Below the pieces are notes generated by a model, which was not told the origin of the DNA, did no database searches, and saw only the letters and a list, made by a program, of their open reading frames with translations. A DNA stretch of 64,000 nt from positions 1,471,783 to 1,535,782 of the forward strand of contig OZ252215.1 in NCBI GenBank assembly GCA_965249025.1. The letters run 5' to 3'. This stretch comes from Dehalococcoidia bacterium. Lineage in GTDB: Bacteria; Chloroflexota; Dehalococcoidia; Lucifugimonadales; CAYTFF01. Shown in pieces: positions 2,806 through 54,670 of this stretch (the stretch's first letter is position 1; the number at the start of each line of letters is the position of its first letter). The translations under genes and the position numbers were made by a program.

Positions 2806-3692
2806 CCGCGGACTATAGCATCGCTCATACGTGCCACTCTCACCATCTCTCTAACATCGTGCACGCGGACTATATCGGCGCCATAGGCGATGGCCAAAGC
2901 CACTGTCGCCGCCGTGCCCTCCAACCGCTGATCGACAGGAAGGCCAAGGACGGCTCCTATGGTTGACTTGCGAGACATGCCTACCAGAATTGGTCTGCCC
3001 AGCACCTTAAACTCGTCTAGTCGGCGAAGGATCTCTAAGTTATGTTGAGGGTTCTTGCCAAACCCCATGCCAGGATCCACGATTATGTTCTCCAAAGAGA
3101 TTCCGGTATTCAGAGCAGCTTGAGTCCCGGACCGAAGTTCAGCTATGACATTTGGGACAACATCGTCATATTTAGTGTGTGATTGATTATGCATAAGAAC
3201 CACAGGAACTCCTTTACTAGCGACCACCTCAGCCATCTGAGGGTCAGCTTGAAGACCCCACACATCATTGACCATAGAGGCCCCCACATCCAAGGCTCTC
3301 TCCGCTACCGACGCCTTGTAGGTATCTATGCTTATTGGCACCCTTAGGCGCCCCTTCAGGCGACTTATCACAGGTAACACGCGTCTCAATTCTTCCTCTG
3401 GGGTTACAGATGTGGCAGCTTCCTGCCCATAGGTATGCGACGGACGAGTCGACTCTCCACCCACATCTATTATGTCCACGCCTTCTTCCTGAAACCGAAG
3501 TGCTTTCTCTATAGCCGCATCGGCATTGTAGCCCAGGCCATCGCCTGAGAAGGAGTCATTGGTAACGTTGATGACTCCCATAACATAAGTACGTTTACCC
3601 CAGATGAACTCGGTGTCTCCGATGTTTGTTGTTCCCCTGCCAGAGACCTTGACCAACACTATGCTCCTTAACTCAACTTCATATTGTAGCAT
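2790..3692 (-). CDS. folP: dihydropteroate synthase
   Basis: 300 aa. MGVINVTNDSFSGDG, DIIDVGGESTRP and VDPGMGFGK are pterin-binding DHPS motifs. The start could lie further in. Confidence 0.9.
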   Translation of the reverse strand: MLQYEVELRSIVLVKVSGRGTTNIGDTEFIWGKRTYVMGVINVTNDSFSGDGLGYNADAAIEKALRFQEEGVDIIDVGGESTRPSHTYGQEAATSVTPEEELRRVLPVISRLKGRLRVPISIDTYKASVAERALDVGASMVNDVWGLQADPQMAEVVASKGVPVVLMHNQSHTKYDDVVPNVIAELRSGTQAALNTGISLENIIVDPGMGFGKNPQHNLEILRRLDEFKVLGRPILVGMSRKSTIGAVLGLPVDQRLEGTAATVALAIAYGADIVRVHDVREMVRVARMSDAIVRGWSGS

Positions 3693-3799
3693 GAGGACGA
3701 GGCAGCTTAGGTTTGAGCTTCCTTGCTTTGATAGTTAGAATCTGCTAGCATAAAATCGCAATTCAGATATGTCCTTGAACACGACATCTAGGCGGAGAG

Positions 3800-5362
3800 A
3801 TGACCATAGAGAGCAAAGCTCAGATAAAGCTAGAACACCTTCAAAAGCTAAGAGCACAGTCTAGGTTGGGTGGAGGCGAGAATAAAATAGAATCACAACA
3901 CAAGAAGGGCAAACTCACTGCACGTGAGAGGATTGCCCTTCTTTTAGATGAAGGCTCTTTTGAAGAGTTAGATGCATTTGCCACTCACAGATGCACAGAT
4001 TTGGGGGCAGAAAAGGACCGACCACTTGGTGACTCTGTGGTTACCGGTTACGGTTACATCAATGAGAGGCTCACATATGTATACGCCCAAGACTTTACGG
4101 TCTTTGGAGGGTCTCTATCTAAGATCGCAGGAGAGAAGATATGTAAGGTGATGGACTTAGCCCTAAAAAACGGGGCCCCTGTTATAGGTCTCAACGACTC
4201 TGGCGGAGCGCGTATTCAAGAGGGCGTCGACAGTCTGGCAGGCTATGGTGATATCTTCCTACGAAACACCATAGCATCCGGAGTAATACCACAGATAACG
4301 GTTATATTGGGGCCAGCCGCGGGTGGAGCGGTGTATTCTCCAGCCCTTACAGATTTCACGTTCATGGTCAAAGATAAGGCCCTGATGTATATCACGGGGC
4401 CTGATGTGGTCAAAGCGGTTACCCAGGAAGAGGTTACTCACGAAGAGTTGGGAGGAACTGAGGCCAATGTTACGAAGAGCGGGGTAGCCCACTTCTCCTT
4501 CGATAGCGAGGAGGAGTGCCTGGAACAGGTAAACCGCCTTCTAACCTTCCTTCCTCAAAATAACATGAGTGACCCAACGCCTGTAGAATTCTTTGATCAC
4601 AACGAACGCATAGATGAGGAATTAGCGTTCATAGTTCCCGATGATGTCTCGAAGCCCTACGACATGAAGGAAATATTGATTAGGGTGGTAGATGATGGCG
4701 ACATAATGGAGGTACATGAAGAACACGCTAAAAACATAATAGTGGGCTTTGCACGTTTCAGCGGACGCCCCATAGGAGTCGTTGCCCAACAGCCTCTTTA
4801 CCTATCAGGCGCTCTTGACATCAACGCTTCAACCAAAGCGGCTCGGTTCGTTAGATTCTGTGATGCCTTCAACATACCCCTGGTAACGTTCATAGACGTA
4901 CCGGGGTTCTTGCCTGGGGTAGCGCAAGAGCACGGCGGTATAATAAAGAATGGGGCCAAGCTTATATACGCCTACGCCGAGGCAACAGTGCCTAAGGTCA
5001 GTGTTATCATACGGAAGGCCTATGGCGGCGCATATATAGTCATGAGCAGCAAGCATCTCCGTGGGGATATTAACTACGCCTGGCCCAACGCTGAGATTGC
5101 AGTAATGGGGCCTGAGGGCGCCGTAAATGTAATTCATAGGCGTGCAATAGAGGAGTCGAGCAATCCAGAAAATACGAAAGTAAAGCTGACTCAAGAATTC
5201 CGAGAGCTGTTCGCATCTCCGTACATCGCGGCTAGCAGAGGATATATTGACGATATCATAGACCCATCTGAGACCAGGCCAAAGATTATCAGAGCATTGG
5301 AAATGCTTCAAAATAAGCGCGATAGCCTTCCTCCCAAGAAACACGGAAATATCCCACTTTGA
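3800..5362 (+). CDS. acyl-CoA carboxyltransferase (propionyl-CoA carboxylase beta / methylmalonyl-CoA carboxyltransferase 12S type)
   Basis: 520 aa. The layout is that of a carboxyltransferase: [50 protein letters not shown] and [11 protein letters not shown]. Confidence 0.9.
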
Positions 5363-34568: not shown

Positions 34569-37500
34569 CTACTCCAATGAGGGGAGGGATTTCACGATTT
34601 TTACTGTCTCTAAACTAATTACCTTGCCGATTAGACGCACGATGTACTCAGGGTCGTCCGAGCGGTTGGGGTCGTTGACAATGCCGCTCCGCTTATCCGT
34701 TTTTACCTGATACTGGTCAATTATCCACTCAAGGGCTGAACGGTTGCCCAGGCGGTACTCGAAGGCAGCGGCTGGGATGCCACCCAGAGTCAGGAAATCA
34801 TTGTAGACAAGCTGCGTCTTGTCTTTGGAGAGCTTCATCTTTTCCACTCGCCAGTTCAGCGGGACGTCCTTGTTCTCCAGCCACTGAAGAGGATATTCCG
34901 CCTGCTCCTCGTAGTCCGAGTGTAGCTCCGCCAACCTGGCTCCCGCTTGGGCGAATCTGCGGAAACCTGACGCAAAGGGTATGCGCGGTAGCTCCCTTTT
35001 CAAGTTGGCGGCATACTTCTCCCTGTATTGTGGATGGTGCAGCAGGCCATAGACGTAATGGAAGATGTCCCACTTGGAGACGCCGTCATCCTTGTAGTGG
35101 GTCCGAAACTCCTCCAGCGCCCAGTCTGTAATGTTCTCTCGCCGGTTTCTGCCGTCCTCACCGTAAGTGTAGAAGGGAAAGCATTGCGTGGCATCGATTG
35201 AGGTCAGCGCCACGTTAGGAATAAGACTCGCACAGAGACACCAGTAATTTGACCGTCCACCTAGACTGGGGGCACAAATCAGACGGTTTTCGTTTTCACT
35301 CCGGTTGGTAGGGAATATACGAGGGAGCTGATAAATATCCTCGTTGAATACACGCTCAAAATAATAGAATTGCACACAGAATGGACGATACAGCGCCTTA
35401 CGAATCCGAGTGTTGTCAAATTCTACTCCTTCATTGCGCAATAAGCTTCTCTTTGTATGCCTAATCCACTTTAGAACCTTTTCATTAATATCTAGAATCT
35501 CGTCAAGATTGCTTGGCTGTCCTTTGCGTCTCCATCTATTAAGTCCTTCACGGTAAGCCTCTACCATTTTCAGTGCAGTTGTTCGTAGTAACTTACTGTC
35601 AAAGCTGTATACGTACGAGTCATTATTGCTTTTGACTCCATTGCTGAACGAAGTAAAGATAGCTTGAACATTAGCCAACCTTTTGTTAGCCTTATCTCCC
35701 ATTAACAAGAGGACTCGAACTCGGGTCTCATGCCTTCGGTCAGCCAAGTATGCTTTGTGTCAGGAGTAATCTCTGTCCAGTCAATTCCGCCCAGAGAAGT
35801 CTTCTCGTCCAGGAAATCGTACTTTTCCTTCTTGCGCCAGAATTCGTCCAGACGGGCATAGTAAATTCTTGCCTGTCTGGGTTCATCGGTCTTCCGTTTG
35901 ATGAAGAGGTTAATGCTTACTCCAATCTGAATCCCGAATACATTGTGCGTTGTGCCTGATAGTTTTGGGTTCTTCCTTACATTCCCGCCCAGGTCCAGAA
36001 TGTAGATAGCGTCAAAATCATCTTCTAGATGCCTTCTTACTCCATCAAATGCTATCCCTTCGATAAAGCTGTTATTAGTTACAAAGGCTACAATCCCTTC
36101 ATCGTTTACTCTATCGGAAGCAAAACGGATTGCTTTTACGTATGGGTCACTTAATTGATTCAATAAGGTAGCGGTGGAGTCCCTGGAATAGGTCTTGGCA
36201 ACGTGTTTATCCATTTCTTTATACTTGCGGTTCTTGTTGTTGTCATTCTCATTTACCTGACCGGCGTTATAGGGTGGGTTCCCGATGACGACAAAGATTG
36301 GTGCTCTTTTCTGGCGTTCCACCCGCGCCGTGTTTTCCTCAGTGAACAGCGGGAGTTGCTTCCCTTCGGCCAGCTCGAATGTATCCACCAGGCAGATACC
36401 CTCAAAGGGCTGGTAAGAGCCTGTGAGTTCATAGTATTCGTGTTCAATATTCATGGAGGCGATGTAGTAGGGCAACAGCATGACCTCGTTGCAGTGAAGC
36501 TCGTTGGCGTACTTGTAGGGCAGTCTGGATTTCTGCATCTCCCGCATTACCCGCACCATGAAACTGCCTGTGCCCACAAAGGGGTCGATAGTATGAACGC
36601 CTTCATCCGAAAATGAGCGGCCAAATCCCTCGTGGAGGATCTCCTCCACCGATTTGACCATGAAGCTCACGATGGGCTGTGGCGTGTACACGATGCCGTG
36701 GGTGTCGGCCACCTTGACCGAGAAACCCTGGAAGAACTTCTCGTAGACAGTGTTCAAGAAGCTCTGCTTCTGGGTGAAGTCATCGATAGTGGCGGCGGTA
36801 GATTCAATGGCACCATAGAAGCGGTCGAGGGATTTCAGAAATTCGTGGCGACTGAAGGACTGCGAGGTCAAGGCCAGAATGACCTTCTCGATTTCGTGGG
36901 CGATAACGTTGCGTTCCACAAAGTCGGGGTTGTTGAACACCTTGCGGAAGATACGCTCCGTTAGCAGGTGCTGAATGAGCATCTCTTCTATGGCCTGAGT
37001 GGAGATGTTGGGGTTGATGGTCTGGCGGCAGAGATTTGAAAAATCTTCGAAGGCCTGAATGAATTGCTGATTGCTGGAACGCTCCTTTTCGATGAGTTGA
37101 ATCAGTCCTTCGGCCAATTCCGGGACCTTGAGTTTGAACTCCTCGACAGCTTGTCCAAACTGCTCATAGGCAGGCGGCTGATAAGCAAAGAAAGTCTTCA
37201 AAGCCTCTATGAGACGTTCCGGCTGGGCGATAGTTCCGTCGAAGACCTGTCTGGAGTCCTGCCAGATGACTATTCGATTGGGAGCCTGAAAGAGAATGTT
37301 GTCCTTAGGGTATCCGACAGCGAACTTCTTCTTGATTTCCTTGTCCAGATCGTCGCTGCTGTCTTTGGCCTCCCAGTAGCCATGAACCAGCTTGAAGCCG
37401 TCCACAACGGCGCCATCGACGCGGATGGGGTGGCCGTTGCGTTTGACGGAGTGTTGCTCAAGCAGCGTCCAAGCGAATTGGCGGGCGCAGTGACGCAGCA

Positions 37501-37765: not shown

Positions 37766-37903
37766 CAGATGCTTCGTCGGCGAGAGGCATTATAAAGCGG
37801 TTGGGTTTAACAGACTCCTCCTTCGGTCGCCGACGCTCCATAGCTTTAGCGACGGAGCGGGGGACGGAGTCCTCCCTTCGGCGGACAAAGTCCTCAGCAG
37901 GAC
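37766..37903 (+). repeat. structured interspersed repeat, copy A (long variant)
   Basis: CAGATGCTTCGTCGGCGAGAGGCAT...AACAGACTCCTCCTTCGG[extra hairpin CGCTCCATAGCTTTAGCGACGGAGCG]GGGGACGGAGTCC...GGACAAAGTCCTCAGCAGGAC aligns with copies B, C and D. Its 3' end overlaps the stop region of the HxlR gene. Confidence 0.8.
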
Positions 37904-38319
37904 CCGCCTGCGGCAGGCTGGGCGGGAGATTCCTCTACCTCAACCCAAGAGTCCGCCCATTTTTGAACCGCTTCAACAATCCCCTTTAGATCGGCTCCTT
38001 TGGGCGTCAAAGCATATTCCACGGCAACCGGGCGGTCCGTATGGACTTTGCGCTCAATGACCCCGACCTCTTCTAACTCCTTTAGACGTTCAGAGAGCAA
38101 GCGATCGCTTATGTCTCCTATGTAGGAGGCTATCTGGGCAAACCGACGAGGTCTGTCGACCAGTGCGCGCAGGATAAGTCCCGTCCACCTTTTGCCAAGG
38201 AGGTTTGTTGTCCACTTGTACCGGGGACACATATGCTCAAAGCTCATATCTTCATTCGCAGCCATAGACAGAATCAATACTAATACTAAATTAGCTGCTT
38301 GCCAAGAGTAATTCGGCAT
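37894..38319 (-). CDS. HxlR-family winged-helix transcriptional regulator
   Basis: CPRYKWTTNLLGKRWTGLILRAL...FAQIASYIGDISDRLLSERLKELEEVGVIERKV is the HxlR core. The start may be internal (MSFEHMCP). The last few codons lie inside repeat copy A. Confidence 0.8.
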   Translation of the reverse strand: MPNYSWQAANLVLVLILSMAANEDMSFEHMCPRYKWTTNLLGKRWTGLILRALVDRPRRFAQIASYIGDISDRLLSERLKELEEVGVIERKVHTDRPVAVEYALTPKGADLKGIVEAVQKWADSWVEVEESPAQPAAGGSC

Positions 38320-39673: not shown

Positions 39674-39789
39674 AGATGCTTCGTCGGCGAGTGGCATTTT
39701 ACAGCTGCTGGATTTAACCGACTCCTCCTTCGGGGGACGGAGTCCCGCCTATGGCGGACAAAGTCCTCAGCATGACAACCCCAACCCCC
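39674..39789 (+). repeat. structured interspersed repeat, copy B (short variant)
   Basis: TAGATGCTTCGTCGGCGAGTGGCATTTT...AACCGACTCCTCCTTCGGGGGACGGAGTCCCGCCTATGGCGGACAAAGTCCTCAGCATGACAACCCCAACCCCC. Confidence 0.8.
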
Positions 39790-39863
39790 GCAGGTATCTC
39801 CATGGCAATGACAGGATGGGGAACTCCGTTCATGGGTTCGACACCGACAAACCGAGGACAGGT

Positions 39864-42578: not shown

Positions 42579-42695
42579 CAGATGCTTCGTCGGTGAAGGG
42601 ATGCTGGATGAGGAGGACTTCAACCGACTCCTCCTTCGGGGGACGGAGTCCCGCCCATGGCGGACAAAGTCCTCAGCATGACAACCCCCAACCTC
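42579..42695 (+). repeat. structured interspersed repeat, copy C (short variant)
   Basis: CAGATGCTTCGTCGGTGAAGGGATG...AACCGACTCCTCCTTCGGGGGACGGAGTCCCGCCCATGGCGGACAAAGTCCTCAGCATGACAACCCCCAACCTCC. The 5' flank GAAAATGGAGTCGCC (from 42564) is shared with copy D. Confidence 0.8.
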
Positions 42696-42854
42696 CACTG
42701 GCATTTTCGGGGCAATGACAGTAAATGGATATGGCTTTTTAGAAAGCGCTTTTGACTTTACACGATGGAGTTGTTACTTTTACGATTGTGTCAGTAAACC
42801 AATGTATTGAAAAGAGGTAGAAGGTTGACTTCCGATAAGTTGAAACAGGTGAAC

Positions 42855-44333
42855 ATGGATACGATCATGTCCCTCTGCAAGCGCAGGGGGTTCATATTTC
42901 AGAGCAGCGAGATCTATGGCGGGCTGGGGAGCACGTGGGACTACGGCCCCCTGGGCGTGGAGTTGAAGCGGAACGTGAAGGAGGCGTGGTGGAGGTCGAT
43001 GGTATGGGACAGGGACGATGTGGTGGGGCTGGACGCTGCGATACTGATGAACCCGCAGGTTTGGGTAGCCAGCGGCCACGCGGAGGGGTTCACGGACCCG
43101 CTGGTGGAGTGCAAGGCGTGTCAAAACCGCTTTAGGCCAGACAAGGTGATGGTACGTGAAGTGACCACCGAAGGCAAGGGCCACATTGGCTATGTGACCG
43201 GATATACTCAAGAAGAATTGCAAAAAAAGCGGAATGTTCTGTTGAAGGATATTCCACCTATGGATATTTTTGAAGTCTCACCTCCGAGGCCATTCCAGGA
43301 GTTCTTAAACGACACAAGCAAGATCCCTTGCCCTTTCTGTGAGGAAGTAGGTCAGTTTACAGAGCCACGGCAGTTCAACCTCATGTTCGAGACGCACGTT
43401 GGGCCTGTGGAGGACAGCGCCAGCCAGGTGTGGCTGCGGCCGGAGACGGCCCAGGGGATCTTCGTAAACTTCGAGAACGTGCAGACGACGACGCGGAAGA
43501 AACTGCCCTTCGGCATCGCCCAGATAGGCAAGGCCTTCCGAAACGAGATAACGGTGGGAAATTTCATCTTCCGCACTCGCGAGTTCGAGCAGATGGAGAT
43601 GGAGTTCTTCGTAAAGCCAGGGACGGACGACGAGTGGTACAAACGCTGGATAGAAGAGCGGTATCAGTGGTATCTGAGCCTGGGTATTCGCAAGGAGAAT
43701 CTGCGCATCCGTGAACACGACAAGGCGGAGCTGGCCCACTACGCCAAGGCGACGTCGGACATCGAGTACCGGTTTCCGTGGGGGTGGGACGAGCTAGAGG
43801 GGATCGCCAATCGCACGGACTTCGACTTGAGGGCCCACGCTGAACACAGCGGGAAGGACTTGAAATACTTCGACCAGGATGAGAACGGCCATTATTATCC
43901 CTACGTCATCGAGCCGTCGGGGGGCGTGGACAGGTCGGTGCTGGCCTTTCTGCTGGACGCCTACACAGAGGAGATGGCACCGACGGCAACGGAGGGCAAG
44001 GAGGACAAGCGGGTGGTGATGAGGCTGGACAGGTCGCTGGCGCCGGTGAAGGTGGCGGTGCTGCCGCTGAGTCGCAACGAGAGGCTGGTGCCCCTGGCGA
44101 GGAAGGTGTACGAACTGACCCGTGGCCACGGCTGGATGGTGCAGTACGACGACACCCAGAGCATCGGGCGTCGGTATCGCAGGCAGGACGAGGCCGGGGC
44201 ACCACTGTGCGTCACGGTGGATTTCGACTCGCTGGAGGACAAGGCGGTCACCATACGAGACCGGGACACGATGGCCCAGGACCGTGTGCCGATTGACGCG
44301 TTAGTAGAAGAATTGAGGGAGCGGCTGGGGTGA
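42855..44333 (+). CDS. glyQS: glycine--tRNA ligase (alpha2 type)
   Basis: [59 protein letters not shown] and the C-terminal anticodon-binding domain are present. ATG 42855 is preferred over the upstream ATG 42807. Confidence 0.9.
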
Positions 44334-44647
44334 CGTTAGACTTTGGTCTGAAGCAAATCCAAGAGTCGGTAAGGCAACGAAAAGTTCTGTTCAGTAATCA
44401 CGTAAACAATGAGATGCTGGACGAAGATATATCACCCAAGGAAATACGAGAGGCGATTCTTAGTGGTACAATTATCGAGGACTATCCTAAGCACCGTCGG
44501 GGTTCTTGTTGCCTAATTTATGGCAGAACAAAGGAAGGACGCAATCTTCACGTAGTTGTAACGAAAGGTAAAGCTCCCTTAATAGTCATTACTGCATATG
44601 AACCAATGCTCCCGTATTGGACATCACCAACAAAAAGAGGCCGATGA
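44330..44647 (+). CDS. DUF4258-domain toxin-like protein
   Basis: 105 aa. The GTG start overlaps the glyQS TGA (GTGA). [20 protein letters not shown]...[23 protein letters not shown] is the DUF4258 pattern. GC is visibly lower than in glyQS. Confidence 0.75.
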
Positions 44648-44865
44648 CAATGAAATGTGATCTATGTGGTGGAGAATACAAAGAGAAGAGGATTTCCCAA
44701 AGTTATAACCGCTTTAGCAAAACTGTGGTGGTAGAGAACATACCAGCTCTGGTATGTGACCGATGTGGAGATATCCTTTTATCAGAAGAAACTGTTGAGG
44801 CCATTCAAGACGCGCTGAAAAAGGAACCTCAGGGTTCTGTCCCCTTGTATCGGCTTGTTAGCTAA
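44644..44865 (+). CDS. YgiT-type zinc-finger (MqsA N-terminal-like) antitoxin-like protein
   Basis: CDLCGG...(x)...ALVCDRCGD forms a zinc ribbon. ATG 44644 makes an ATGA overlap with the toxin stop. ORF track start is 44617. Confidence 0.7.
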
Positions 44866-44900
44866 ACGGCGCCACGCTTCTCAGTTCTCACCATCCTGGA

Positions 44901-45035
44901 GCACCACTGTGTGTCACGGTGGACTTCGACTCGCTGGAGGACAAGGCAGTCACTATACGAGATCGGGACACGATGGTCCAGGACCGTATGCCGATTGACG
45001 CATTGGTGGAGGAGTTGGGGGAGCGGTTGGGGTAG
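44901..45035 (+). pseudogene. displaced duplicate of the glyQS 3' end (last 44 codons plus stop)
   Basis: The 135 bp align base-for-base with 44199-44333, with about 16 mismatches by eye and no gaps. It translates in frame to [45 protein letters not shown]. Confidence 0.85.
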
Positions 45036-45189
45036 TAAGGGGTTAGACCTCCTTTCTTGACCCATCTGAGTTAAAGAGAGCAAGTCAATATCACGCCTTT
45101 TGGCCTATCTTTTTATGCAAGGCCAGTCTAAACTGTCCAGCGTAATCTAGTGGCCGATCTAACCATGAAACGCTTGACTAGAGGCAGCA

Positions 45190-46458
45190 TTGACGTCTAT
45201 CTCCTATCGCTGGGTAATTGCGTCCCTGTCGTTTTTAGCGTTGTTCGCTTCTATGGGGACGAGAGCTTCCTTTGGAGCTTACGTTCTCTCGTGGGAGGAG
45301 AGCTTTGGGGCCAGCCGTGGCGAGGTAAGCTTCATCTCTTCTTTGAGCTTCATCGTTTTCGGCTTGGGTATGGTGGTGGGAGGCCAGCTGGCAGACCGAT
45401 TTGGCACGCGGAAAGTAGTAGTAACCAGCTTTGTTCTATCTGGCATCAGCTTGTTGGCCTCATCACTGGCAACTTCCCTCTGGCATATGATCATCCTCTA
45501 CGGCGTCATTGTTTCTCTGGGGTCCTCGGGCACCTCTCCTGTAACGTTGTCTCCTGGGGTGATGAAGTGGTTCAGCGATCGGCGAGGCCTGGCATTAGGA
45601 TTCAGCAACAGTGGTATAGCAGTCGGCCAGATGGCGCTGGTGCCGTTGAGCATATATCTAATCAGAGCATTCGACTGGCAAACCTCCCTTCAAATCTTCG
45701 GCTTGGCCTATCTAGCGCTACTAGCGCCTGTCTTCTGGTTCCTGTATCGCGACAACCTACCTGCTGCTAAATCGCCGGACGATGAAAAGAATGGTGTAAC
45801 GGTTGAACCCGTCCAGGAATCAGCGTCCAATAGCGCAACTCAGCTTGATGCCAGTCCAAAACCCAGAGAAAGTCTGGTAGCTGTCATGTGGCTTCTTGTA
45901 ACCTGGATGATTATAGCCCCGTATTTTGTCTGCGGTTTCACAGATATCGGACTATTCAACACACACTTCATTCCACTATCGGAAGGACGCGGATTCTCGT
46001 CCGAAATCATAGTTTTTGCCATTACCCTTAGCAGCATAGCCACTCTAGGAGGGGCAGTGGTCACGGGCTACCTAACGGACACCATGCGCCTGACAACCCT
46101 GCTGAGCCTGACGTATGCATTGCGGGGCGGTAGCCTGGTGCTGCTTTTGTTCGCGAATAGTCCTAGCCTGCTGCTGATCTTCGGCATGCTTCATGGGATA
46201 ACGACGGTGGCTACCATCGCTCCCACGACTACACTGTGCGCAAGGGTTTACGGATACCACAGAGTGGGCAGCGTTTTTGGGGTGATGTCACTGTTTCATC
46301 AGTTCGGGGCAGCCGCTGGCTCCTTTATTCCGGGTCTGCTCTTTGATCTGACGGCAAGCTACAATGTGGCCTTGATTCTGTCTGCCTCTATGTTAGCGAT
46401 GGGTTCGGTTATCACCTGGATGGTTGTGGAAGGGAGAAGGCATACCACCACACCATAA
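45190..46458 (+). CDS. MFS transporter
   Basis: 422 aa with a TTG start after GAGG. There are 12 predicted hydrophobic segments, and GGQLADRFGTRKV is the loop 2-3 motif. Confidence 0.8.
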   Translation: MTSISYRWVIASLSFLALFASMGTRASFGAYVLSWEESFGASRGEVSFISSLSFIVFGLGMVVGGQLADRFGTRKVVVTSFVLSGISLLASSLATSLWHMIILYGVIVSLGSSGTSPVTLSPGVMKWFSDRRGLALGFSNSGIAVGQMALVPLSIYLIRAFDWQTSLQIFGLAYLALLAPVFWFLYRDNLPAAKSPDDEKNGVTVEPVQESASNSATQLDASPKPRESLVAVMWLLVTWMIIAPYFVCGFTDIGLFNTHFIPLSEGRGFSSEIIVFAITLSSIATLGGAVVTGYLTDTMRLTTLLSLTYALRGGSLVLLLFANSPSLLLIFGMLHGITTVATIAPTTTLCARVYGYHRVGSVFGVMSLFHQFGAAAGSFIPGLLFDLTASYNVALILSASMLAMGSVITWMVVEGRRHTTTP

Positions 46459-46649
46459 GAGCTGTGGCACGAAGGGGGTTGGCCCAGGGTGAGTGGTGGT
46501 TGGGTAAACGGTACGATAGATTCCTCGTCTCTCTACAAGTCAGGGTTCTCGGAATGATAGGGCAAATGGGCTAGGGGTGAGCGGAATAGCACCCCCTCTC
46601 TGACTCTGGTCTGTTGGACACAGGGAACAGGGTTGTCTGAGGTACGGCC

Positions 46650-48518: not shown

Positions 48519-48598
48519 CCCCTCCCCCATGAATGGGGCGAGAATAAGGGGCCTCCCCAGATTCTTCTACCAACGAGGTGGGGTTCTCGGGATCATAC
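48519..48598 (+). repeat. composite hairpin repeat (CCCCTCCCCC..GGGGCGAGAA plus AGATTCTTC..GGGTTCTCGG module)
   Basis: It parallels 48868-48959. Related AGATTCCTCGTC... pieces occur at 42348-42385 and 46519-46560. Confidence 0.65.
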
Positions 48599-48823: not shown

Positions 48824-48867
48824 ACGACTCCTCGAAATGACAGGGTGGGCCCAGTATGAGCAGGATA

Positions 48868-48959
48868 GCACCCCCTCTCTGACTCTCCCCCATTAAAGGG
48901 GGTGAGAACAAGGGGCCTCCCCAGATTCTTCGACCGACGAGTTGGGAGAAGAATGACAG
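48868..48959 (+). repeat. composite hairpin repeat (CACCCCCTCTCTGACTCTCCCCC-ATTA-AAGGGGGTGAGAA plus AGATTCTTC...GAGAAGAATGACAG)
   Basis: Two consecutive inverted repeats can be read directly. Together with the other repeats it fills the MFS-hppA intergenic space. Confidence 0.75.
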
Positions 48960-54133: not shown

Positions 54134-54670
54134 CTATCCCGCATGCGTCCCATCGGCGTCGTAGACGTACACCTTATCGTCGATGATGTCCAACACGTAG
54201 AAGTAAGCTCCATCCCAGGCTATGCCAAAGGGGTAGGTGTTGCCGGTGGCGAGGTCGAAGTCGCGGTCTGACTGGTAGTTCCCATCGGCGTCGTAGACGT
54301 ACACCTTATCGAACAAGTTGTCCGTCACATAGAAGTAAGCTCCATTCCAGGCTATGCCCCAGGGGTAGGTGTTGCCGGTGGCGAGGTCGAAGTCGCGGTC
54401 TGACTGGTAGTTCCCATCGGCGTCGTAGACGTACACCTTATCGTCGACGACGTCCACCACGTAGAAGTAAGCTCCATCCCAGGCTATGCCAAAGGGGTAG
54501 GTGTTGCCGGTGGCGAGGTCGAAGTCGCGAGCGGCCCTTCGCCACGTCCCACTGACCTTGGTCCAAGAATGGGCTGCCTTCCATGTCCCCGCCACCTTCA
54601 CCTTGGCGGCCGCCGTCTGCCATGCCCCCGCTGCCTTGACCTTGATCGGCATCGCTAGTACTCCAGCCAC
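54134..54670 (-). CDS. tail-fibre-associated protein with three NHL/beta-propeller-like 44-aa repeats
   Basis: 178 aa. The N-terminus has KVKAAGAWQTAAAKVKVAGTWKAAHSW repeats. Then come 3 copies of RDFDLATGNTYP(F/W)GIAWxGAYFYVxDxxxDKVYVYDADGNYQSD. Confidence 0.6.
   Translation of the reverse strand: MAGVLAMPIKVKAAGAWQTAAAKVKVAGTWKAAHSWTKVSGTWRRAARDFDLATGNTYPFGIAWDGAYFYVVDVVDDKVYVYDADGNYQSDRDFDLATGNTYPWGIAWNGAYFYVTDNLFDKVYVYDADGNYQSDRDFDLATGNTYPFGIAWDGAYFYVLDIIDDKVYVYDADGTHAG
54149..54529 (-). repeat. 3 x 132-bp near-identical tandem repeat within the fibre-associated gene
   Basis: Units start at 54149, 54281 and 54413. The flanks are identical and differences cluster in one patch of about 18 nt per unit. 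Confidence 0.9.

Follow-up and report, generated by a model that had tools for sequence, protein, structure and literature searches.

We analysed the 3' end of glyQS, the gene for dimeric glycine–tRNA ligase (GlyRS), in a 64,000-nt stretch of a Dehalococcoidia genome (contig OZ252215.1, positions 1,471,783 to 1,535,782; hereafter the window), where a small putative toxin-antitoxin (TA) cassette lies between two copies of the gene end. A repeat search with subsequent alignment revealed an ungapped direct repeat of 136 nt at 44196–44331 and 44898–45033, 89% identical and with copy starts 702 nt apart, whose blastn E-value of 1e-45 excludes a chance match. Copy 1 represents the final 45 codons of a 508-codon open reading frame (ORF) for full-length GlyRS, which matched NCBIfam NF003211 with 671 bits over profile positions 1–452 of 454 and contained the Pfam domains tRNA-synt_2b and HGTP_anticodon. 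Copy 2 also translated in frame and differed from the GlyRS C-terminus at 3 of 45 residues. Across the 135 coding nucleotides the two copies showed 15 substitutions, and they ended in TGA (44331–44333) and TAG (45033–45035), respectively.

The insert between the copies measured 0.57 kb, lay exactly at the glyQS stop codon and consisted solely of a DUF4258 toxin gene, a zinc-finger antitoxin gene and a 32-nt spacer (Table 1). The GTG start of the toxin gene (44330) overlapped the glyQS TGA as GTGA, the ATG of the antitoxin gene (44644) overlapped the toxin TGA as ATGA, and a Shine-Dalgarno-like sequence, GAGGGAG, was located at 44315–44321, 8 nt upstream of the toxin start. The cassette had a GC content of 43% and a GC content at third codon positions (GC3) of 38–39%, the lowest GC3 among all ORFs in the window, compared with 58% and 78% for glyQS. 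An earlier interpretation made from the DNA letters alone (the sequence-only reading) had described an ungapped gene-end repeat of about 135 bp with about 16 substitutions, in frame to TAG, and our alignment confirmed this description with 15 coding substitutions plus the altered stop. Its further statement that only a DUF4258 toxin-like gene and a YgiT/MqsA-type gene separate the copies, with a GTGA overlap, agreed with the ORFs and the profile matches.

Table 1. Features at the 3' end of glyQS and downstream of it (window coordinates)
Feature	Position	Strand	Remarks
glyQS (dimeric glycine–tRNA ligase)	42807..44333	+	Maximal ORF from TTG 42807; likely start ATG 42855; intact through the C-terminal anticodon-binding domain
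Repeat copy 1 (c1), functional last 45 glyQS codons plus TGA	44196..44333	+	Commonest homolog residue at 3/3 non-synonymous sites
Putative toxin gene, DUF4258 (BECR / RelE-ParE superfamily), 105 aa	44330..44647	+	Pfam PF14076, 78.7 bits; GTG formed by the last G of the glyQS Gly codon and the TG of TGA
Putative antitoxin gene, YgiT/MqsA N-terminal-type zinc ribbon, 73 aa	44644..44865	+	TIGR03831, 42.9 bits; 71 aa if the start is ATG 44650
32-nt trailer, antitoxin stop to copy 2	44866..44897	+	No hairpin or inverted repeat
Repeat copy 2 (c2), probable displaced glyQS 3' end, in frame to TAG	44898..45035	+	3 derived changes: A>V, V>M, R>G
Spacer ahead of the MFS gene	45036..45189	+	Weak terminator-like hairpin at 45039–45051 containing GTTAGAC; equivalent in relative L082, 23 nt
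MFS transporter gene, native downstream neighbour of glyQS	45190..46458	+	Pfam MFS_1; 73% identical to the gene directly after glyQS in L082

A search of copy 1 and the cassette revealed no promoter-like site, and the only hairpin was the weak one after copy 2. Given the two stop-start overlaps and the lack of a recognisable promoter, the pair is most likely carried on the glyQS transcript with coupled translation, which is the most economical reading of this arrangement. Rfam and tRNA scans of the region were empty, with no T-box, tRNA target or known RNA. The 7-mer GTTAGAC occurred after both stops, at 44335–44341 (offset +2) and at 45043–45049 (offset +8); about 16 nt past the stop may have belonged to the original duplication, a later loss of 5–6 nt in copy 1 having fused the toxin start to the glyQS stop.

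The toxin exceeded the DUF4258 cut-off of 25 bits by a wide margin, its residues 21–91 covering profile positions 1–71 of 71, and it conformed to all 16 columns that are invariant among 26 aligned sequences. A start at codon 29, the next one in frame, would delete helix 1. The AlphaFold2 model of the toxin (pLDDT 86.9) found MqsR (3hi2), BrnT (3u97) and a Salmonella TA toxin as top matches in the PDB, with probabilities of 0.96–0.98 and TM scores of 0.5–0.66 but weak E-values of 0.17–0.25. DUF4258 is counted among the BECR-fold toxin families in the RelE/ParE superfamily, without a published activity, and DUF4258-MqsA fusions have been recorded (PMC11980606). The best toxin homolog was 50% identical, and no close copy of the cassette was found. 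By exact look-up and homolog search, the toxin ORF was missing from a collection of 5.8 billion proteins in which a GlyRS 100% identical to that of the window was present; the toxin has apparently never been called as a gene, perhaps owing to its GTG start overlapping the glyQS stop, and the present analysis flags it as apparently absent from public protein calls.

The antitoxin matched the YgiT zinc-finger profile TIGR03831 above its cut-off of 20.2 bits and carried two CxxC pairs. Full-length MqsA profiles scored below their cut-offs for this 73-aa protein (MqsA_antitoxin, 22.4 against 30; TIGR03830, 25.6 against 61.8), and the matches to MqsA-family profiles spanned only the first 56–57 of 127–131 positions. 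Pfam and NCBIfam profiles detected no C-terminal helix-turn-helix (HTH) domain, and autoregulation by DNA binding, which the HTH of MqsA provides, therefore appears unlikely. The order of toxin gene and then zinc-finger gene was observed in most of about 85 related loci, the partner being an ORF of 76–78 aa with two CxxC motifs. Together, these features identify the pair as a putative type II TA module, with a presumed toxic first product that the second would neutralise.

The glyQS loci of relatives were then compared with that of the window. In a full-length protein search, the nearest GlyRS proteins were 79% (locus L081) and 72% (locus L082) identical; neither a contig scan with GlyRS (maximum 60% identity) nor a search with the C-terminal 120 aa (maximum 78%) revealed closer relatives. 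L082 retained the gene order of the window, Lactamase_B(-)/glyQS(+)/MFS(+)/H+-PPase(-), and its Lactamase_B and MFS proteins were 79% and 73% identical to their window counterparts. Its gap between glyQS and the MFS gene was only 23 nt and contained neither cassette nor duplicate, that is, an empty site. No second glyQS end and no cassette sequence were detected in L081 or L082, and a second GlyRS C-terminal copy was present at 0 of 82 other glyQS loci. The preserved synteny around an empty gap supports the interpretation of the glyQS cassette as an insertion, and the duplicate accompanies it, as the sequence-only reading had supposed: relatives without the cassette were also without the duplicate.

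Synonymous sites were saturated in L081 and L082, and the polarity of the differences between the copies was read from amino acids only. At all three non-synonymous sites (A/V, V/M, R/G), copy 1 carried the commonest residue among 128 GlyRS homologs and copy 2 did not, and the anticodon-domain profile scored 84.0 bits for copy 1 and 81.2 bits for copy 2. These results support copy 2 as the displaced, decaying end of glyQS, in line with the earlier claim of an inserted cassette with a displaced gene end. Both copies contained an Ala where 127 of the 128 homologs have Thr, which suggests that both derive from the same narrow lineage or from close relatives.

The divergence of the two copies was markedly constrained by coding. 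All 15 coding differences were transitions, 11 fell at codon position 3, and 12 were synonymous against 3 non-synonymous. If the end had been duplicated in place, with copy 1 constrained and copy 2 neutral, about half of the changes would be expected to be non-synonymous, and the probability of observing 3 or fewer among 15 would be 0.003–0.03. A 12:3 split is typical of two functional lineages. The pattern therefore suggests that the two copies had largely diverged before they were brought together, each still functional at the time, and that one of the two ends was imported. To this is added a small later decay in copy 2, namely its three derived residues.

A metagenome scan with the toxin alignment yielded 80 loci with toxins of 37–49% identity, and for each locus 600 nt upstream of the toxin was compared with 1.8 kb downstream by blastn. 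Besides the window, in 6 of the 62 non-redundant loci with adequate flanks the cassette was tightly flanked by two copies of the 3' end of an upstream gene with the same orientation. The duplicated ends belonged to a UPF0182 gene (64 nt, 95–97% identity; L084/L085/L097, from three samples), a CCG/Fe-S oxidoreductase gene (113 nt, 93%; L095, where the insert comprises the TA pair and two further ORFs), asnB (54 nt, 96%; L100), hsdM (37 nt; L135, where the insert also carries a PRiA4_ORF3-like gene), a DUF3473 gene (55 nt with the stop codon inside the duplication; L124) and an unnamed gene (69 nt made up of gene end and downstream sequence; L125). Equally tight duplications of non-coding sequence were observed at four or five more loci (L118, L127, L139, L143/L149), and the remaining loci had no flanking repeat even with a sensitive aligner. 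Random control positions gave such repeats in 3 of 316 cases, all paralogous gene pairs, and in 9 of 168 cases, all dispersed repeats in repeat-rich contigs. Across at least 8 independent loci, the first copy ended 0–72 nt before the toxin start and the second began 5–54 nt past the antitoxin stop. The differences between copies in L084, L095, L100 and L135 were mostly non-synonymous, consistent with decay of the downstream copy, and in L084 the near-identity of 97% ended abruptly 10 nt before the stop, where a new 3-codon tail was supplied from the cassette side. The sequence-only reading had proposed looking for copies of the cassette with different gene-end duplications, and distant homologs of this kind were found; its description of the layout holds, whereas its view of the glyQS case as a single oddity does not, the layout recurring across the cassette family at many genes. 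This recurrence at many unrelated genes argues against a classical gene-specific integrase.

Several candidates were set aside in this survey. The flanking repeats of L101/L103, L116, L120, L132, L151 and L164 were excluded as target duplications, being dispersed or tandem repeats of their genomes. In L132, a different TA pair (a 79-aa antitoxin-like ORF and an 84-aa RelE/ParE-like ORF) sits tightly between 47-nt direct repeats (920–966 and 1519–1565), which belong to a dispersed heptamer-rich family of that genome; hence not every flanking repeat is a target duplication. The GGTGAC that ends copy 1 in both the window and L084 was taken as a coincidence, since its spacing to the toxin start differs.

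Other members of the family showed features of their own. The L135 case is a compound insertion at a defence locus: within a type I restriction-modification locus (613–1827, 3437–5020), the TA pair, a 90-aa ORF and the PRiA4_ORF3-like gene lie between the hsdM end and its duplicate. Some related loci sit within arrays of TA genes. A three-gene subfamily (L090, about 2510–2780; aligned with L130, L096, L121 and L114) has its own conserved promoter-like leader, composed of TTGACA, 17 nt and TAAAAT with an upstream TG. Its third gene is glutaredoxin-like, and in 5 of 5 loci TGA replaces the first Cys of the CPYC motif (TPT-TGA-PYC); the product may be a selenoprotein, and Rfam gave no SECIS match for this gene.

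The limits of the moving unit were read from pairs of cassettes that are 86–92% identical in different contexts. Such pairs could be aligned only from about 10–77 nt before the toxin start to 0–40 nt after the antitoxin stop, which indicates that the mobile unit would be essentially the two ORFs. Ahead of the L108 cassette, which shares 94% identity with the L100 cassette, stand the final 37 nt of asnB, 92% identical and translating to TMFQIWWERYFR and then a stop. The 5.7-kb L108 locus contained no asnB and no long flanking duplication, and VapBC-type genes lie around the cassette; the GC content of the cassette, 0.35, equals that of the L100 host, and that of the locus is 0.43. An asnB tail in a locus without asnB, together with a cassette GC content matching the L100 host, points to an end piece of the previous host gene that travelled with the cassette. 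The recent L108 insertion at a non-homologous site appears to have produced no long duplication. L108 was also considered as a circular permutation of the L100 unit, and this was rejected, as L108 lacks the trailer and the left part of the repeat of L100.

A dedicated machinery for movement was not apparent. Pfam annotation of the window ORFs between 34.5 and 51 kb revealed no integrase or transposase for about 10 kb to the left and right of the cassette, and genes for conjugation, a relaxase or an integrase were missing from both sides of glyQS, consistent with the earlier description of a small element without an integrase. The flanks of L084, L095, L100, L125 and L135 contained no integrase either, the only transposition-related gene being an IS605-type TnpB upstream of hsdM in L135. 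Terminal inverted repeats above the shuffle maximum were absent from all 12 loci analysed, 11 of which were at or below the 95th percentile. The region 44860–45195 folded no better than shuffled sequences (z = 0.02), a comparison made without a dedicated attC model. The flanking duplications varied in length from 37 to 136 nt, and inspection by eye revealed no consistent microhomology at the junctions. Viral contigs contained one weak locus and plasmids three weak matches (30–34% identity), which indicates no vehicle.

We favour, with a probability of about one half, the reading that the family consists of recombinase-less TA cassettes that move with a piece of the previous host gene and integrate by host homologous recombination. 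A small selfish type II TA cassette would have been inserted at the glyQS stop codon after arriving joined to a 136-nt 3' piece of the glyQS of a related lineage, which would have acted as a homology arm. Host homologous recombination would then have joined this arm to the resident glyQS, either through single-crossover integration of a circularised molecule of arm, toxin and antitoxin, a presumed intermediate whose integration would duplicate the arm, or through a homology-anchored left junction combined with an illegitimate right junction. In either case the complete glyQS would have been regenerated as copy 1, and one gene end would have been stranded 3' of the cassette as copy 2, now decaying. 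The pair would be transcribed from the glyQS promoter and translated in a coupled manner, and addiction, that is, killing or growth arrest upon loss of the labile antitoxin, would protect the insertion, provided that the two proteins act as predicted. This recombination reading accounts for the coding-constrained divergence and for repeats that vary in length, for a cassette with neither mobility gene nor cis-acting site, for the L108 remnant and for the lack of duplication where homology is lacking. The 12:3 codon pattern likewise fits the replacement end that the sequence-only reading had proposed.

Several observations weigh against recombination with a travelling arm. The closest GlyRS relative in all collections searched is 79% identical, and neither the foreign copy nor a donor allele could be recognised. 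At the other loci, the mostly non-synonymous differences between copies fit plain decay and do not require an imported end. The L124 and L125 insertions lie 45–66 nt downstream of the stop, where a duplication is not needed for gene repair. The model does not explain how a cassette first captures a new gene end, and L108, not being circularly permuted relative to the L100 unit, lends no support to a circular form. Within the glyQS repeat, the copy that holds G or C at variable sites switches between 44300 and 44303 (Fisher p = 0.011); this change of polarity could mark a crossover point or, equally, be the outcome of selection favouring an A-rich sequence ahead of the toxin start. The longest block identical between the copies, 23 nt at 44223–44245, lies elsewhere, and no identical core is evident at the switch.

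The competitor with most in its favour, which we nevertheless consider unlikely, is a long target-site duplication made in place: a bare cassette would have entered at a widely staggered break or by fork template switching, fill-in would have duplicated 37–136 nt, and copy 2 would have decayed from initial identity. The wide range of duplication lengths suits such an origin, as do L124 and L125, where the duplication spans the stop and, with the insertion downstream of it, looks like a by-product rather than a repair. The predominance of non-synonymous differences in L084, L095, L100 and L135 is what decay predicts, the abrupt end of near-identity with its new tail in L084 points the same way, and insertion sequences of the IS1634/IS1549 group provide a parallel for long, variable direct repeats. 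The window itself, however, speaks against neutral decay with its 12 synonymous and 3 non-synonymous changes (P as given above), the recent and still 94% identical L108 cassette has no long flanking duplication, and a transposase would have neither terminal inverted repeats nor conserved cassette ends to act on, nor is one encoded nearby in the window. We judge it improbable to a greater degree that the locus is the remnant of an integrase-borne island, in the manner of a cis-mobilizable element (CIME), in which an element with a glyQS-specific tyrosine integrase and a replacement end was deleted down to the TA pair and both att sites. The layout of gene-end attL, cargo and displaced gene-end attR with synonymous-biased divergence is exactly what such a remnant would show, any other cargo could be lost before a TA pair, and integrase-less CIMEs and microCIMEs that retain att sites at gene 3' ends are documented (PMC7563491). 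Yet no integrase was detected within about 10 kb in the window or in the flanks of the five other loci of the same layout, and tight boundaries at 8 or more independent loci would need repeated near-perfect deletions that always spared a useless downstream copy. Moreover, the targets are many and unrelated while the cargo next to the repeat is always of the same TA family, and no identical core is evident at the inferred polarity switch.

An RNA-mediated route is very unlikely in our estimation. A processed glyQS-toxin-antitoxin transcript would have been reverse-transcribed by a reverse transcriptase acting in trans and inserted like a processed retrogene, which would suit cassette boundaries that hug the ORFs, upstream gene-end pieces that travel along, variable duplication lengths, the lack of inverted repeats and of a recombinase, and the relation of the toxin family to mRNA endonucleases. 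The proposal is one of resemblance; neither the window neighbourhood nor the examined loci showed a reverse transcriptase, no 3' terminal signature was present, one subfamily has its own promoter within the conserved unit, and we know of no bacterial precedent for RNA-mediated insertion of a cassette. Still less credible is an integron cassette or a miniature transposon that is mobilised in trans. Integrons commonly contain TA pairs as cassettes, attC sites measure 57–141 nt, GTTAGAC after both stops fits the core motif GTTRRRY, and some related loci lie in TA-gene arrays; but the repeat is not attC, being genuine GlyRS coding sequence that homologs conserve, the region after the antitoxin has no more folding potential than shuffled sequence, terminal inverted repeats are missing, no IntI or transposase lies nearby, and the L084 junctions have no GTTRRRY. 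An assembly artefact or chance similarity, finally, can be practically dismissed. Mis-assembled strain mixtures can generate repeats, but here the copies differ at 15 positions and are joined to unique sequence on both sides, the source contig is 3.28 Mb long and the GlyRS 100% identical to that of the window (P0001) is on record from it, the layout is found again in assemblies made independently in different projects, with the UPF0182 case in three samples, and the blastn E-value speaks against chance. The artefact that the sequence-only reading had named as a possible objection is thereby excluded.

Beyond the glyQS locus, we advance tentatively, as a possibility and not as an expectation, that DUF4258/zinc-finger TA pairs, and perhaps other small TA pairs, form a distinct kind of recombinase-free mobile element with a captured gene tail as a portable homology arm. 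With the same reserve, such elements might lodge by host recombination at the 3' end of an orthologous, often essential gene, borrow its transcription and translation, and leave a decaying gene-end footprint. In a more radical version, the unit may spread through a reverse-transcribed processed co-transcript. The horizontal movement of TA modules is known, whereas the movement of bare two-gene chromosomal cassettes without a mobility gene is largely unexplained, and the footprint described here (a TA pair at a stop codon, a duplicated gene end and sometimes the tail of a prior host gene) can be searched for, which makes the question testable in existing genomes. With the recurrence at unrelated genes and the travelling gene tail, an isolated curiosity becomes a model for the spread of bare TA cassettes that can be tested. 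If the model is true, a selfish module whose start codon is fused to the stop of an essential aminoacyl-tRNA synthetase gene thereby secures its expression and resists deletion, and orphan pseudogene fragments of gene ends downstream of TA pairs would be explained.

Further observations concern glyQS itself and its surroundings. The interior of the gene at 43125–43349 has a GC content of 42–44%, compared with about 60% elsewhere in the gene, and corresponds in the protein to an insertion about 60 aa long with CxxC and CPFC motifs at its borders. By length, GlyRS homologs form two classes, of about 440–455 aa and about 500–520 aa, and the region thus looks like a clade-specific GlyRS insertion domain of odd composition. 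The window also contains a dispersed repeat, about 140 nt long, at three places (37767–37914, 39674–39814 and 42580–42721), the last two copies being 95% identical over 75 nt; one copy lies directly upstream of glyQS within the 1.27-kb spacer between Lactamase_B and glyQS, which measures 210 nt in L082. The repeat may be a small mobile or regulatory element. Downstream, short dispersed repeats of 41–59 nt and 83–85% identity (46567–46607 with 48846–48886, and 48524–48582 with 48888–48946) flank a second MFS gene and a 153-aa ORF, both of which are missing from the syntenic region of L082, and this part may be another insertion. A minus-strand ORF at 54134–54670 contains three tandem 132-nt units (54148–54543, 89–92% identical) that encode 44-aa protein repeats. 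On the minus strand at 34569–37405, a Type ISP restriction-modification enzyme is divided into two overlapping ORFs, one with the coupler and methylase domains and the other with the C-terminal specificity domain; either a pseudogene with a frameshift or a system in two parts may lie behind this.

The glyQS locus closely resembles the sites of integrative elements that enter the 3' ends of genes. The lambdoid phage 21 and the element e14 insert at the 3' end of icd in E. coli with a replacement end. These two, ICESt1 and ICESt3 at fda, and the streptococcal integrative conjugative elements (ICEs) and integrative mobilizable elements (IMEs) at rpsI, rpmG and rplL share with it an intact gene, an insert and a displaced copy of the last ~50–170 nt, as well as copies that diverged mainly at synonymous sites and empty sites in relatives. 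They measure 10–60 kb, however, and encode a tyrosine integrase for one gene, whereas the cassette is 0.57 kb long with no integrase within about 10 kb, and the layout of its family occurs at 7 or more unrelated genes, unlike that of elements whose integrase serves a single gene; the recombinase that defines such elements is thus the feature it lacks. The streptococcal integrative elements target the 3' ends of rpsI, rpmG, fda and rplL, and integrase-less CIMEs (1.2–13 kb) and microCIMEs (130–220 bp) with preserved att sites are known from the 3' ends of rpmG, rpsI, fda and rplL (PMC7563491). CIMEs and microCIMEs are like the cassette in having no recombination genes, in being flanked by direct repeats of a gene 3' end and in their ability to carry cargo. 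CIMEs derive from ICEs or IMEs by deletion and typically stand in tandem with the mobilising element, whereas the cassette has no visible partner or ancestry and its boundaries are tight around one TA family.

At the level of the module, MqsR/MqsA of E. coli (PDB 3hi2) and BrnT/BrnA likewise have the toxin gene first, and MqsR and BrnT were the best structural matches of the toxin model, which would be compatible with a related fold; by sequence the window toxin is not of the MqsR family. The cassette antitoxin matches the N-terminal zinc-binding domain of MqsA, and the C-terminal HTH, used by MqsA in DNA binding and autoregulation, is missing from it. The proposed route of entry has a counterpart in homology-facilitated illegitimate recombination and Campbell-type integration, in which one short anchor admits foreign DNA without an enzyme of the element and a single crossover with a circle duplicates the anchor. 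Those events are laboratory or sporadic ones, whereas the route proposed for the cassette would amount to the habitual spread of one family; no published link of homology-facilitated integration to TA cassettes was found. Insertion sequences of the IS1634 and IS1549 type create long, variable direct repeats, as the cassette does, and encode a transposase and have terminal inverted repeats, both of which the cassette lacks. Our literature search, whose coverage is incomplete, returned no account of TA cassettes in which gene ends are duplicated or carried along, and the novelty of the arrangement is accordingly provisional. The nearest published case is a ParDE-like TA module downstream of an orthocaspase gene in Microcystis aeruginosa PCC 7806, which is flanked by 152-bp direct repeats (PMC7935541). 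Like the glyQS cassette, it is a TA pair immediately after a host gene and bracketed by direct repeats; the Microcystis repeats are identical, non-coding and contain inverted repeats, whereas those at glyQS are a duplicated gene end.

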